From Escherichia coli (GTDB taxonomy: Bacteria; Pseudomonadota; Gammaproteobacteria; Enterobacterales; Enterobacteriaceae), in NCBI RefSeq assembly GCF_002854065.1, contig NZ_CP024147.1: 64,000 bases of DNA. One strand, given 5' to 3'. This document shows, in pieces, positions 4,001 through 13,000 of the stretch. The position numbers are program-made. Position 1 is the stretch's first letter. Every line of letters starts with the position of its first letter.

Positions 4001-7000
4001 GCGGCAACGGTGGCGGTGATTCAGGACGCCCTAAACTCTTGTGGCTTACCGGCGGGTGCCGTGCAGGCGATTGATAATCCTGACCGTGCGCTGGTCAGTG
4101 AAATGCTGCGTATGGATAAATACATCGACATGCTGATCCCGCGTGGTGGCGCTGGTCTGCATAAACTGTGCCGCGAACAGTCGACGATCCCGGTGATCAC
4201 AGGTGGTATAGGCGTATGCCATATTTATGTTGATGAAAGTGCAGAGATCGCTGAAGCCCTGAAAGTAATCGTCAACGCGAAAACCCAGCGTCCGAGCACA
4301 TGTAATACGGTTGAAACGTTGCTGGTAAATAAAAACATCGCCGATAGCTTCCTGCCCGCATTAAGCAAACAAATGGCGGAAAGCGGCGTGACATTACACG
4401 CAGATGCAGCTGCGCTGACACAGTTGCAAGCAGGCCCCGCGAAGGTGGTGGCGGTTAAAGCGGAAGAGTATGACGATGAGTTTCTGTCATTAGATTTGAA
4501 CGTCAAAATCGTCAGCGATCTTGACGATGCCATCGCCCATATTCGTGAACACGGCACACAACACTCCGATGCGATCCTGACCCGCGATATGCGCAACGCC
4601 CAGCGTTTTGTTAACGAAGTGGATTCGTCCGCTGTTTACGTTAACGCCTCTACGCGTTTTACCGACGGCGGCCAGTTTGGACTGGGTGCGGAAGTGGCGG
4701 TAAGCACACAAAAACTCCACGCGCGTGGCCCAATGGGGCTGGAAGCACTGACCACTTACAAGTGGATCGGCATTGGTGATTACACCATTCGTGCGTAAAT
4801 AAAACCGGGTGATGCAAAAGTAGCCATTTGATTCACAAGGCCATTGACGCATCGCCCGGTTAGTTTTAACCTTGTCCACCGTGATTCACGTTCGTGAACA
4901 TGTCCTTTCAGGGCCGATATAGCTCAGTTGGTAGAGCAGCGCATTCGTAATGCGAAGGTCGTAGGTTCGACTCCTATTATCGGCACCATTTAAATCAATA
5001 AGTTACCTCGCATTTAAGTAAACTACGTTCTCCTCTTGTGCCGTATTTGTGCCATTGCGACTTATAATCGCATCGATTTTGCTCGCGTGCTCGGTGAGAT
5101 GCCCGGCTGAAAGGTGGGCGTATCTTTGAACCATTTCGAGAGTTTCCCATCCTCCCATCTCTTTAAGCGCAAGAAGAGAGACACCGGACTGAACCAGCCA
5201 GCTTGCCCAGGTATGCCTCAGGTCATGGAAGCGGAAGTTGCTAATGCCTGCCCGCTTTAACGCTCCCTTCCATGCCTTGTTGCTGTCGGTTCTCATCTTC
5301 CTTACCGCTGCTGTTTTTGTTCCGTCGCTTCGGTAGGCAGGTTTGGTGTGGACAAATACCCATCTCTTATGGAGCCCCTGCTGTTTTCTTAATATCTGGC
5401 ATGCGGTTTCGTTAAGAGGAACTCCGATCGCATTGCCAGCTTTTGTTTCATCAGGGTGCATCCATGCCATTTTCTTATCCAGATCGACCTGTGACCACTC
5501 AAGGTCTGTAACGTTGGAACGGCGAAGGCCTGTCGTGATTGCAAACATGACCACAGGGAAGAAATGAGGAGCAATTTCTGCAAACAGGCGCTTCGATTCC
5601 TCCTCTGTAAGCCATCTGATTCGTCCATTCTTAACGCGTGGTGTTGATATTTTGGGCGTCCTGTCAAGCCATCCCCATTCAACAGCCATATTGAGAATAG
5701 CGCGAAGTATTGCCAGATGCCGCGTCTTCGTTCCTTTGCTTGCCAGCTTTGGTTTATACTCCGGCACTGGCTTGCCAAGCCGCAAACACCTGTCCCGGCT
5801 CATCTCCCAGTTCAGGCGATGGCGGCGGTTTTCCATCCCGTCTACCGCCTCCATTATTTTTTCTGTTGTTATGTCAGAGAGAATGGTTTCTCTGAAGTGC
5901 AACATCCAGAACGATATAATGCTCTTGTCATCATCAATGGACTTCTTATCCGATTTCTCACGCAGCCACCGTATGCAGGCTTCCTTGAATAGCTTTTTCG
6001 GTGATTCCCCGAGATTTTTTACTCTCCACGCTTCTGCTTTCAGACGATCGTGAAGTTCTTGCGCTTGCCTTTTGTCCGATGTTTCAAGAGAGCGTCTAAC
6101 TCTTGATCCATCTGGCGCGACGAAATCGCAGTGCCACGTGCCACCGCGTAGTTTGATTGACATGCTTTAACCTCCTGCACATCAACCGCATTCACCGCGC
6201 TATTGTGTCTCACAGACTTAAGCGCCGCAATGCAGTCTGACTTGCAAATGCGATATGGGCTTTTAGGTTTATCTGGATTTATCTTTGCGGCCTGAAGTCG
6301 TCCACTTCGTATCCACTGTGTGATAGTGCCTTTGTCTACCTTCAGATACGACGCAGCTTCTTCACGAGTGAAGATTTCTTCTTCCACCTGGAATCTCCAT
6401 TTGTTGGATTGACATGATTGCGGTAGGTCTGGATATCTTGAGAAATGAACAGGCCTCATCGAGTGTGAGGCTGTATGATTCCATGGTTACCTCTGCTTTT
6501 TGAACGCATGTCACGTAACTTCTTAATGTGTTCTGCCGTTTCGATCTCTTCTGCTATCCGATCTGCATCAGCTTTATTCACAGGTTCAAAGTCATGATTA
6601 AAGCGGAACATGCTGGCGATACATGTTCTGCCTTTACGGATGTAGTGAACTTTGTTGTGGGTAGAACGCAGGATTTTGCAGGGAGTGCCGTGGTGGTCAA
6701 CGTACCAGGTGTTAGGAAAAATGATTCTGAACATTTTTACACCTCAGTTGGACGATGTTGAAATTTGCTGCTTTGAGGCCATCACAATCCCCATTGTTTG
6801 TTCTTAAGTTCGATCTCCTCCTGGCAACTTGCACAAGTCCGACAACCCTGAACGGCCAGGCGTCTTCGTTCATCTATGGGATCGCCACACTCACAACAAT
6901 GAGTGGCAGATATAACCTGGTGGTTCAGACGACGCATTTTTATTGCTGTATTGCGCTGTAATTCTTCGATTTCTGATGCTGAATCAATGATGTCTGCCAT

Positions 7001-10000: not shown

Positions 10001-13000
10001 TATAAGTGCGCTCGATGCCGCGATGCAGATATAGCCGTCCGCGTAAATTAGCTGATGCTGTCCAGGTACCATCTTTGTGTTTGACCAGCATTCCTGGCAT
10101 GACCGCACCGCGATTAACGGTCTGCGTTCCGTAATGTTGATGAACCATAAAAACTCCTGCCCGTAAGCTGGGCTGCTGAACATATAAAGACTTCTGGGTA
10201 ATGACTCCAACTTATTGATAGTGTTTTATGTTCAGATAATGCCCGATGACTTTGTCATGCAGCTCCACCGATTTTGAGAACGACAGCGACTTCCGTCCCA
10301 GCCGTGCCAGGTGCTGCCTCAGATTCAGGTTATGCCGCTCAATTCGCTGCGTATATCGCTTGCTGATTACGTGCAGCTTTCCCTTCAGGCGGGATTCATA
10401 CAGCGGCCAGCCATCCGTCATCCATATCACCACGTCAAAGGGTGACAGCAGGCTCATAAGACGCCCCAGCGTCGCCATAGTGCGTTCACCGAATACGTGC
10501 GCAACAACCGTCTTCCGGAGCCTGTCATACGCGTAAAACAGCCAGCGCTGGCGCGATTTAGCCCCGACGTATCCCCACTGTTCGTCCATTTCCGCGCAGA
10601 CGATGACGTCACTGCCCGGCTGTATGCGCGAGGTTACCGACTGCGGCCTGAGTTTTTTAAATGGCGGAAAATCGTGTTGAGGCCAACGCCCATAATGCGG
10701 GCGGTTGCCCGGCATCCAACGCCATTCATGGCCATATCAATGATTTTCTGGTGCGTACCGGGTTGAGAAGCGGTGTAAGTGAACTGCAGTTGCCATGTTT
10801 TACGGCAGTGAGAGCAGAGATAGCGCTGATGTCCGGCAGTGCTTTTGCCGTTACGCACCACCCCGTCAGTAGCTGAACAGGAGGGACAGCTGATAGAAAC
10901 AGAAGCCACTGGAGCACCTCAAAAACACCATCATACACTAAATCAGTAAGTTGGCAGCATCACCTCTGGGTTGAGCGTATTTTAATCAGTAGTATCTTTT
11001 ACAAAATAAAGAGTATTCAATAATGAAAATTTTAATGATGATCGTGGCAGTTTCAGTATTGGCTGGCTGCACAAGTGACACCCGCTCGATGTGGCATAGC
11101 CGTTATGCATTCAAGACTGTCGGTCAGGTCTCTGCAATGTGTGATGATGGCGATCGTGACGCTTGCTATGCAGCTCGCGATATGGGGGCAATGCAGGTTG
11201 GCCTTAATCAAGCAAATCAGACCATTCAACAGCAGCAAGCTCAGCAGGCAGCTATCGATGCGGCTAACAGACCGATTACAACTAATTGTAATCCCACGAT
11301 AAATGGCGGAATGAGTTGTACCACCTACTAAACTGGTGCGAGAGTTAGTAGCGCCATGAACATTGTTAAGTCGAATGTCTTTATGAAACATTCTAGTACT
11401 TTAAAGCTGCCCCACTTACTCGCCTGACAAACGCACAGCAGGTGGTTTATTGGGTTTGAAAATATCTAAAAATAAGAGGGGGTGAAGTAATGGATGATTT
11501 TGAATCTTACGTGAAGTATTGGGAAGGAAAAAAAATTGAAGATCATGAGCGTCAACTAGATGATCTTGTACGGAGAGAGACTGAGATTTCGCAAGGAGAA
11601 AGCGGGCATGGAAGATTAAGTTTTATCGCACAGCAAATCAATTTTCACCGTAACAAACTGGAAAATTTACGCTTCAGTGGTGATTTGTACTAATTTGATT
11701 TTCCATAATCAACTCGCCATAATCATGTCATCGGAGCCTGAACAACTCCGGTGACTTCTGCGCTAAACGGGGACGTTTATGCGCACATACAATCTAAATT
11801 CTCTTCTCCCTTCACAGATGCAGAAATGCACCTGCGATTTTTTGCATCCAGCGTTTGACCTCTGCGGAGGTGAAGCGTGAACCTCCCACAAGACGGCATC
11901 AAATTACATCGCGGTAACTTCACCGCTATCGGTCAGCAGATCCAGCCTTATCTGGAGGACGGCAAATGCTTTCGCATGGTGCTTAAACCGTGGCGCGAAA
12001 GACGCAGTCTTTCCCAGAATGCACTCAGCCACATGTGGTACAGCGAAATCAGTGAGTACCTCATCAGCAGGGGGGAATCGTTCGCTACTGCAGCATGGGT
12101 AAAAGATGCTCTCAAACACACATACCTCGGTTATGAAACCAAGGACCTGGTTGATGTCGTAACCGGCGAAGTCACTACGATCCAGTCGTTACGCCATACC
12201 TCCGATCTTGATACCGGAGAGATGTATGTCTTCCTGTGTAAGGTTGAAGCCTGGGCGATGAATATTGGCTGCCGCCTGACTATTCCGCAGAGCTGCGAGT
12301 TCCAGCTGCTGCGCGACAAGCAGGAGGCGTAATGACTACACCGCTTATTCGGGTCATGAACGGACACATCTACAGAGTACCAAATCGTCGTAAGCGTAAG
12401 CCTGAGCTGAAGCCATCCGAAATACCAACACTGCTAGGGTATACCGCCAGCCTGGTTGATAAAAAATGGTTGCGACTGGCAGCAAGGAGGAATCATGGCT
12501 GATTTGAGAAAAGCAGCGCGTGGTCGGGAATGCCAGGTAAGAATCCCTGGCGTATGTAATGGCAATTCTGAGACGTCTGTACTGGCACATATCCGGCTGG
12601 CTGGATTGTGCGGTACCGGTATCAAACCGCCAGACCTGATTGCCACCATTGCATGTTCTGCCTGTCACGACGAAATCGACCGCCGCACACATTTTGTCGA
12701 TGCTGAGTATGCAAAAGAATGCGCGCTGGAAGATATGGCGAGAACACAGGTTATCTGGCTGAAAGAGGGGGTTATTAAGGCGTGAATACCTACAGCATCA
12801 CATTACCCTGGCCTCCGAGCAATAATCGCTATTACCGCCATAATCGCGGGCGCACGCACATCAGCGCAGAGGGGCAGGCATACCGCGATAACGTCGCCCG
12901 AATCATTAAAAACGCAATGCTGGATATCGGCCTGGCTATTCCTGTGAAAATCCGCATTGAGTGTCACATGCCGGATCGCCGTCGCCGTGACCTGGATAAT

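Follow-up and report, generated by a model that had tools for sequence, protein, structure and literature searches.

The 64,000-nucleotide stretch of Escherichia coli DNA analyzed here (NCBI RefSeq assembly GCF_002854065.1, contig NZ_CP024147.1; its full length is called the window below) carries a remnant of a lambdoid prophage integrated at thrW, a gene for tRNA-Thr(CGT). The remnant retains exo, bet and gam, the Red module of phage lambda, together with a gene for an orphan Dam-family DNA methyltransferase. We consider it likely that this is a young defective prophage, twice cut by the insertion sequence IS1, whose early-left operon is now silent or weakly transcribed. A sequence-only reading of the same DNA had proposed that a remnant without a repressor could constitutively supply recombination, anti-RecBCD and methylation functions to the host. 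That proposal is unsupported, as the putative promoter-operator region pL/OL was deleted with the repressor, only 48 bp of leader are left, a homologue of the toxic KilR comes first, and the region is not enriched in promoter-like sites. The remnant is also longer than had been thought. Its end had been placed at 10196, next to IS1, and this is exact for the left arm, with IS1 beginning at 10197; however, the remnant runs past this copy, IS1-A, to 17623, about 12.6 kb in total (window 4970-17623), its right arm continuing through nin, rusA, Q and morons to the stump of a holin gene.

The window was compared with the prophage of E. coli strain 100416 (NZ_CM128593; L002 coordinates refer to that stretch), E. 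coli CUWW06 (NZ_CP182139; L001), phage IdasGreatGrand (PP925829; L006) and phage PhiR30_1 (PV340558). Families were assigned by PHROG, by NCBIfam (TIGR and NF) hidden Markov models with curated cutoffs and by Pfam, and the tRNA by ARAGORN and Rfam; genome counts are over 5,426 complete E. coli genomes. The features on which the argument turns lie at the end of the left arm:

9942-10148, minus strand: KilR-type FtsZ/cell-division inhibitor homologue, 68 aa, intact (PHROG 294 Kil, E 1.3e-37)
10149-10196, minus strand: remnant of the kil leader, 48 bp, with the Shine-Dalgarno sequence GGCAGGAG, as read from the sequence
10197-10964, minus strand: IS1-A, 768 bp, with insA/insB directed toward kil; no 9-bp target duplication; marks a 5,604-bp deletion

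To the left of IS1-A, window 4970-10196 (5,227 bp) is 100% identical to the 100416 prophage, with 0 substitutions, and to its right, 10965-14514 is 99.94% identical (L002 22832-26381), with 2 substitutions in 3.5 kb. Between these two arms, IS1-A stands for 5,604 bp of 100416 (L002 17228-22831). The lost block comprises a 435-bp non-coding stretch with the putative pL/OL, a 310-aa gene, a DUF6932 gene, an S24-peptidase cI-type repressor, a cro-like regulator, a YdaT-domain gene, O, P and ren, and also pR. On the minus strand at L002 ~17455-17500, the sequence TTGTTGTTGACGATAAAACAACTATAGTTTTAAAT mirrors the OR/pR region GGTTGTTGACTAAAAACAACCATAGTTTTAATCT next to cro. As this candidate combines a TTGAC(G/T) -35 box, a 17-nt spacer and GTTGTT/AACAAC operator-like repeats, we take it to be pL/OL, inside the deleted interval. 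No N-like gene is present in the window, and the annotation of the intact relatives shows none between pL and kil either. Thus, of the earlier statement that the immunity and N region is missing and replaced by IS1, the absence of immunity stands, but the loss is larger, extending over 5.6 kb with pL/OL, pR, O, P and ren.

The 310-aa gene and the 157-aa DUF6932 protein occupy the rexAB position by cI in 100416 (L002:17663-19065, minus strand) and match the two components of PDC-M63, a candidate defence system in PADLOC (B, E 4e-42; A, E 7e-43). The IS1 deletion took this cassette from the window lineage.

The structure of the IS1 copies speaks to how the block was lost. The window holds three identical 768-bp copies with ends GGTGATGCTGCC / GGTAATGACTCC, annotated by the NCBI annotation pipeline PGAP as IS1B-family transposase. 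IS1-A is flanked by ...AGACTTCTG on the left and TCTGGGTTG... on the right, and the lack of a 9-bp duplication at both IS1-A and the third copy, IS1-C, indicates deletion or rearrangement. An inversion between IS1-A and IS1-C was considered and rejected, as the flanks are without reciprocal 9-mers. CUWW06 is 100% identical to the window over proBA and 99.8-99.97% elsewhere, and its kil/IS1 junction matches the window base for base, with the other junction 662 bp further right. IS1 adjacent deletions are one-ended and leave the element without direct repeats (PMC9330008); a fixed end, a variable other end and no direct repeats are the signature of such one-ended, IS1-mediated events. We infer that insertion came before deletion: IS1 would first have landed in the pL-kil interval, 48 bp from kil, and one or more adjacent deletions from its left inverted-repeat (IRL) end would then have removed 5.6 kb, including leader, pL/OL, the two-gene cassette, the cI-like gene, cro/pR, the YdaT-type gene, O, P and ren.

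Among the complete genomes, the kil/IS1 junction occurs only in CUWW06, the complete genome closest to the window strain, so the IS1-A deletion is lineage-specific. An exact scan of species-representative contigs for the junction gave 0 matches. In the proBA region, the matches listed other than CUWW06 are at most 99.2% identical, and 100416 is not among the closest. Set beside the identity of the prophage arms, this suggests that the prophage may be far more recent than its host lineages.

If the repressor is gone, then the early genes might be expected to be on. According to this rival explanation, Kil, Gam, Bet, Exo and the methylase are made constitutively, and the host is hyper-recombinogenic, partly RecBCD-inhibited and altered in its methylome. 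In its favor, the repressor is indeed absent, all open reading frames (ORFs) are intact with ribosome-binding sites, and IS1-A is co-oriented with the operon, the outward -35-like hexamer in its end being plausibly spaced from a -10-like TATATG. The ends of IS1 carry an outward -35-like box that can form a hybrid promoter if a -10 lies at the right distance (PMC8764528), and such hybrid promoters are documented (PMC8764528, PMC9330008). At the junction, which reads ...AAGTTGGAGTCATTACC|CAGAAGTCTTTATATGTTCAGCAGCCCAGCTTACGGGCAGGAGTTTTTATG on the transcribed strand, the right inverted-repeat (IRR) end of IS1 and the leader together offer a candidate of this kind: TTGGAG, 18 nt, TATATG (or 17 nt, TTATAT). 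However, the match is poor, 3/6 and 4/6 with no T at -10 position 6, and fails the criteria of a consensus scan. In ST131, the effect of a co-oriented IS1 on the downstream gene ranges by site from a 7-log2 increase through none to a decrease (PMC8764528).

Against this rival, repressor loss does not entail derepression here, because the early promoters and whatever antitermination device the phage had went in the same block. The surviving early-left coding sequence, kil-gam-bet-exo-orf60a-methylase-orf61-TraR-DUF4222-xis-int, is now severed, like the nin/Q region, from its native promoters and from any antitermination function. Transcription could then arise only from the poor hybrid promoter at the IS1 end or as read-through out of IS1 itself. 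The transposase promoter of IS1 is weak and autorepressed by InsA, and here it points in the same direction as the operon. Sigma-70-like sites in the region number 8, compared to 6.9 +/- 2.8 in shuffled sequence, showing no excess; candidate internal promoters for bet and exo (for example 8790-8763) were rejected, being no commoner than in shuffled sequence. Terminator-like hairpins lie in the kil-gam gap (9917-9900) and after exo (8041-8019), and no N/nut-type function is left to override them. A scan of the window and an intact relative at the Rfam gathering threshold, in which antitermination or other RNAs were sought, returned only the tRNA.

The identity of the first gene bears on the same question. 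The kil gene, which the sequence-only reading had not listed, is the first gene 3' of IS1-A, between it and gam. Its product is 36% identical to KilR of the K-12 prophage Rac over 61 aa (E 9e-13) and scores 63.1 bits with NF008465, for which the curated cutoff is 92; compared with lambda Kil, it shows no similarity. Even small amounts of KilR are highly toxic, and its expression is normally under tight repression, to which Rho and NusG contribute (PMC12482147). The presence of an intact KilR homologue as the promoter-proximal gene thus argues against strong constitutive transcription, and any GATC methylation would in addition be masked by host Dam (PMC4996451). A prophage can outlive the loss of its repressor only if early promoters, or killing and replication functions, are lost too, and this is what the IS1 deletion did. 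Collectively, we judge a hyper-recombinogenic host improbable and, likewise, give constitutive expression at a phenotypically relevant level little chance; most likely, the Red genes and the methylase are silent or expressed at a weak basal level.

Several points nevertheless weigh against a silent operon in a young remnant. The junction does read TTGGAG, 18 nt, TATATG, upstream of the kil ATG and its intact Shine-Dalgarno sequence, and some constitutive transcription of kil-gam-bet-exo is conceivable. The order of insertion and deletion rests on two genomes only, and the dam status of the host and its other prophages lie outside the window. Finally, all left-arm ORFs are intact, which could be read as selective retention. 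Intact ORFs, however, say nothing about selection here, because zero substitutions compared to 100416 mean that the remnant is too young to have decayed. There is a slight chance that the IS1 end, or read-through, gives low, constant amounts of Gam, Bet and Exo, with a sub-toxic amount of the KilR-type inhibitor, in both the window strain and CUWW06. If so, the strain would by nature be capable of recombineering, with RecBCD partly inhibited, and would need neither plasmid nor induction; this would be a spontaneous counterpart, created by an IS, of the sbcA mutations that activate recET in Rac. Only with a transcriptionally active IS1 junction would an unusual recombination phenotype be expected.

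In the relatives, a small conserved ORF that includes an arginine-rich stretch (RGVRGVKRTRERRCDQ) lies just upstream of kil (L007:5058-5297 and L002:17180-17383, both minus strand), and its last 48 nt survive in the window at 10149-10196. Owing to a T5/T6 run, this ORF is separate (79 aa) in PhiR30_1 and fused in frame to Kil in 100416 and the window lineage. Tested against known N proteins, the 79-aa ORF gave no PHROG match; it could be an unrecognized N-like antiterminator.

The proteins of the Red module themselves are close to those of lambda:

8102-8782, minus strand: Exo, the Red-alpha exonuclease; 222/226 aa as in lambda Exo (98.2%); TIGR03033 54.7 bits, under the cutoff of 68.05
8779-9564, minus strand: Bet, the Red-beta single-strand annealing protein; 260/261 aa as in lambda Bet (99.6%); TIGR01913 169.5 bits (cutoff 77)
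9570-9866, minus strand: Gam, the RecBCD inhibitor, 98-aa form; 95/98 aa as in annotated lambda Gam over its last 98 residues (96.9%); PHROG 259, E 4.9e-60

At 8779-8782, the end of bet and the beginning of exo overlap by their stop and start codons. At the DNA level, window 7946-9948 is 97.5% identical to lambda 31194-33193. These pairwise alignments bear out the sequence-only reading in its description of a complete exo-bet-gam of near-lambda sequence, and from their sequences we predict that Exo, Bet and Gam, as well as the methylase, are fully functional.

Since Exo, Bet and Gam are nearly identical to the lambda proteins, one might ask if the segment is an engineered recombineering cassette, either a laboratory defective lambda prophage or a Red construct. 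We regard this as extremely improbable. The DNA is 97.3-97.5% identical to lambda in a patchy manner, and int, xis, the methylase gene and kil are not lambda's. The left arm is 100% identical in a Gambian human stool isolate and 97.9% identical in the isolated phage PhiR30_1; a near-lambda exo-bet-gam block is found in 3,136 of the complete genomes (58%, counted at >=80% coverage). Most directly, the borders are a natural attL at thrW and IS1, with no vector or marker sequence at the junctions, and this refutes an engineered origin.

Downstream of exo, the remnant encodes the methyltransferase:

7391-7948, minus strand: orphan N6-adenine DNA methyltransferase, 185 aa (PF05869 'Dam', E 5.5e-56; TIGR01712 166.2 bits, cutoff 97.05)

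The PF05869 match spans model positions 1-168 of 169, and TIGR01712 is an equivalog model, 'phage N-6-adenine-methyltransferase'. The NPPY motif (residues N75-P76-P77-Y78) is invariant in an alignment with the Dam proteins of phages VT2-Sakai and T1. The gene fills the slot of lambda orf63: lambda homology ends at 7394 and restarts at 7946. It is flanked by the DUF1317 and orf61-like genes, with no restriction gene next to it, and the best PADLOC match is 'oMTase', all in keeping with the orphan NPPY adenine methyltransferase that had been proposed. The allele is found in 243-311 of the complete genomes. A search of the Protein Data Bank (PDB) with the protein gave no match at E<=1.

As for the target, the protein shares 47% identity with M.EcoVT2Dam, from phage VT2-Sakai, and 45% with T1 Dam, both of which methylate GATC (PMC6602927, PMC4996451). 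Because these two relatives share only 33% identity with each other and nevertheless have the same target, GATC is most likely also the target of the window enzyme. Relaxed specificity is a possibility, by analogy, because a relative at 35% identity to T1 Dam had off-target activity (PMC4996451). A non-specific enzyme of the M.EcoGII type was rejected: M.EcoGII is a class-beta enzyme of another family (PMC7544214), and the window protein belongs to PF05869. The methylase is probably redundant with host Dam, and its GATC activity would be masked in a Dam+ host (PMC4996451). M.EcoVT2Dam and M.EcoT1Dam are likewise small, phage-borne PF05869 proteins with NPPY and no partner restriction enzyme; the gene lies in the nin region in VT2-Sakai, in contrast to the Red region in the window.

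The remaining genes of the left arm lie between the methylase and thrW, apart from the DUF1317 gene next to exo:

4913-4988, plus strand: thrW, tRNA-Thr(CGT) (ARAGORN; Rfam tRNA, 71.8 bits)
5003-6163, minus strand: tyrosine integrase, 386 aa, full length (PHROG 1 integrase, E 3.6e-71; PGAP site-specific integrase in 100416)
6040-6459, minus strand: excisionase-like helix-turn-helix (HTH) protein (PHROG 2907, E 6e-52; TIGR01764 31.3 bits, cutoff 28.8)
6456-6734, minus strand: DUF4222 small early protein (PHROG 285; PGAP annotation)
6782-7000, minus strand: TraR/DksA-type C4 zinc finger (PHROG 54, E 2.8e-25; TIGR02419 54.6 bits, under the cutoff of 59.7)
7099-7314, minus strand: lambda orf61-like small protein (PHROG 303; lambda-homologous DNA; named orf61 in PhiR30_1)
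7941-8105, minus strand: DUF1317 protein, lambda orf60a homologue (PHROG 1998; ~90% aa identity to lambda orf60a)

The window opens with crl-phoE-proB-proA, followed by the tRNA gene. The attL core is the 3' end of thrW from ~4970, and homology to the prophage copies of 100416 and CUWW06 begins at 4970-4972. The int stop codon lies 14 nt from the end of thrW (15 bp had been given), and the PHROG and NCBIfam matches agree with the lambda-order series of an xis-like gene, small early genes and a TraR-type zinc finger that had been described. The integrase is ~21% identical to lambda Int and thus not lambda Int. The true start of the excisionase-like gene may be internal. The TraR/DksA gene lies in lambda-homologous DNA, window 6805-7394 being 97.3% identical to lambda 30418-31008, and the hairpin at 8041-8019, inside the DUF1317 gene just after exo, is tL3-like.

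Other elements have entered the same site in the relatives. In CUWW06 (L001 1583-14521), a P4-like satellite (integrase, P4-family primase and Icd-like gene) precedes the remnant at thrW, and an IS2 splits the remnant's integrase; with an IS1 deletion that is 662 bp longer, this amounts to successive decay steps at one locus. In 100416, a second integrase-bearing element lies in tandem.

Beyond IS1-A, the right arm reads as follows, with the gene names of the early arm carried over from the PGAP annotation of CUWW06 and 100416:

10965-13744, plus strand: right early arm, now promoterless (99.94% identical to L002 22832-26381)
11023-11331, plus strand: lipoprotein-like ORF
11490-11693, plus strand: small ORF
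11877-12332, plus strand: ybcN
12332-12502, plus strand: ninE
12495-12785, plus strand: ybcO/DUF1364
12782-13144, plus strand: rusA
13141-13281, plus strand: ylcG
13367-13744, plus strand: Q antiterminator
13900-14424, minus strand: lipocalin (Blc-like) moron (PHROG 2809 or 3275, the two being cited jointly for this gene and the next)
14617-15576, plus strand: YbgA-family moron (PHROG 2809 or 3275, as above)
15789-16556, minus strand: IS1-B, marked as a simple insertion by its 9-bp target duplication CAGATTGGT; collinearity with IdasGreatGrand extends across the site
16557-17623, plus strand: last prophage segment (99.25% identical to IdasGreatGrand, L006 8087-9154; PHROG 1450)
16705-17436, plus strand: HTH-domain protein, 243 aa
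17536-17623, plus strand: holin gene, first 88 nt only (the IdasGreatGrand holin is annotated at 9066-9371)
17624-18391, plus strand: IS1-C, without target duplication; cuts the holin gene and joins the chromosomal ykgL region

Collinearity with the functional phage IdasGreatGrand, at 97-99% identity, extends over window 11694-15788 and resumes over 16557-17623. After IS1-C come ykgL, ykgO and ykgM, per the CUWW06 annotation. Beyond the holin stump, nothing is left of the lysis, head and tail genes or of attR: when the thrW region was compared by BLAST with the whole 64-kb window, no second 3' end was found, only chance 10-14-mers. A second IS1-bounded deletion would have removed everything from the holin gene on, attR included. 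The chromosomal segment that separates thrW from ykgL on the K-12 map (CP4-6 region, ecp operon and others) seems to be missing at this point in the window.

Could the prophage still be induced or mobilized, or be a satellite rescued by a helper phage? Its int and excisionase-like gene are intact, and thrW is an active integration hotspot, as the tandem elements of CUWW06 and 100416 attest. However, there is no attR within the 64 kb, and repressor, O, P, lysis and structural genes and cos/terminase are all missing, with the holin gene cut by IS1-C; rescue of genes by an infecting lambdoid phage is possible, but this would be marker rescue, not induction. We therefore hold it very unlikely that the prophage is inducible or mobilizable in any of these ways. 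The element is unable to excise, replicate or lyse.

The lipocalin and YbgA pair just 3' of Q is found at the same place in functional phages, for example IdasGreatGrand and Lambda_ev087. The slot downstream of Q is where lambdoid phages carry morons such as stx.

Further from the remnant, the fdeC inverse-autotransporter adhesin gene is broken into a pair of ORFs that overlap (27229-29037 and 29004-31481); it is annotated as 'frameshifted' in CUWW06 and is likely a pseudogene. Over window ~33000-55000, CUWW06 (L008) carries at least 3 further IS1 copies, which interrupt an aldo/keto reductase gene, precede pdeL and lie in the yahE-fdrA gap, whereas the 64-kb window holds no copies beyond A, B and C. 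This indicates ongoing IS1 expansion in the lineage of the window and CUWW06.

The remnant is an ordinary cryptic prophage remnant, in which every part is known and in a known arrangement, and all of its genes are annotated by PGAP in CUWW06 and 100416. Since Red-bearing cryptic lambdoid prophages occur in most E. coli genomes, there is little consequence beyond correct annotation. It does offer a caution, namely that the loss of a repressor is not equal to derepression. For incoming lambdoid phages, the intact Red genes are also a reservoir open to marker rescue, and a promoter-creating mutation could reactivate them.

The nearest relatives include two functional lambdoid phages and the 100416 prophage. 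PhiR30_1 shares the left arm, and with it the methylase, at 97.9% identity, and IdasGreatGrand the nin-Q-lipocalin-YbgA-HTH-holin right arm at 97-99% identity, while the 100416 prophage is 100% identical from int to kil. All three keep pL/OL, cI, cro, O and P, to which the two phages add lysis and virion genes; in the window, IS1 stands in their place. The lambda Red region (orf73/TraR-orf61-orf60a-exo-bet-gam, 30418-33193) shares gene order, stop/start overlaps and sequence with the window, at 97.3-97.5% DNA identity. It differs in that the window has a Dam-family methylase in the orf63 slot, a KilR-type kil in place of kil and cIII, int and xis genes unrelated to those of lambda, and no pL, N or nutL. 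DLP12 of K-12 (ybcN-ninE-ybcO-rusA-ylcG-quuD) has the same nin/Q gene set and order as window 11877-13744 but lies at argU rather than thrW and is without a Red module; its rusA is silent until an upstream IS insertion activates it.

By analogy, Rac of K-12 (intR-xisR-...-recT-recE-...-kilR-...-racR) is the closest functional analogue of the remnant. It too is cryptic and lambdoid, its recombination module is intact, and a toxic kilR precedes this module in the leftward operon; both are normally silent, and its recET genes are active only after promoter-creating sbcA mutations. Rac differs in that it keeps its repressor RacR, has RecE/RecT rather than Exo/Bet/Gam, retains both att sites and can excise (PMC4632033).

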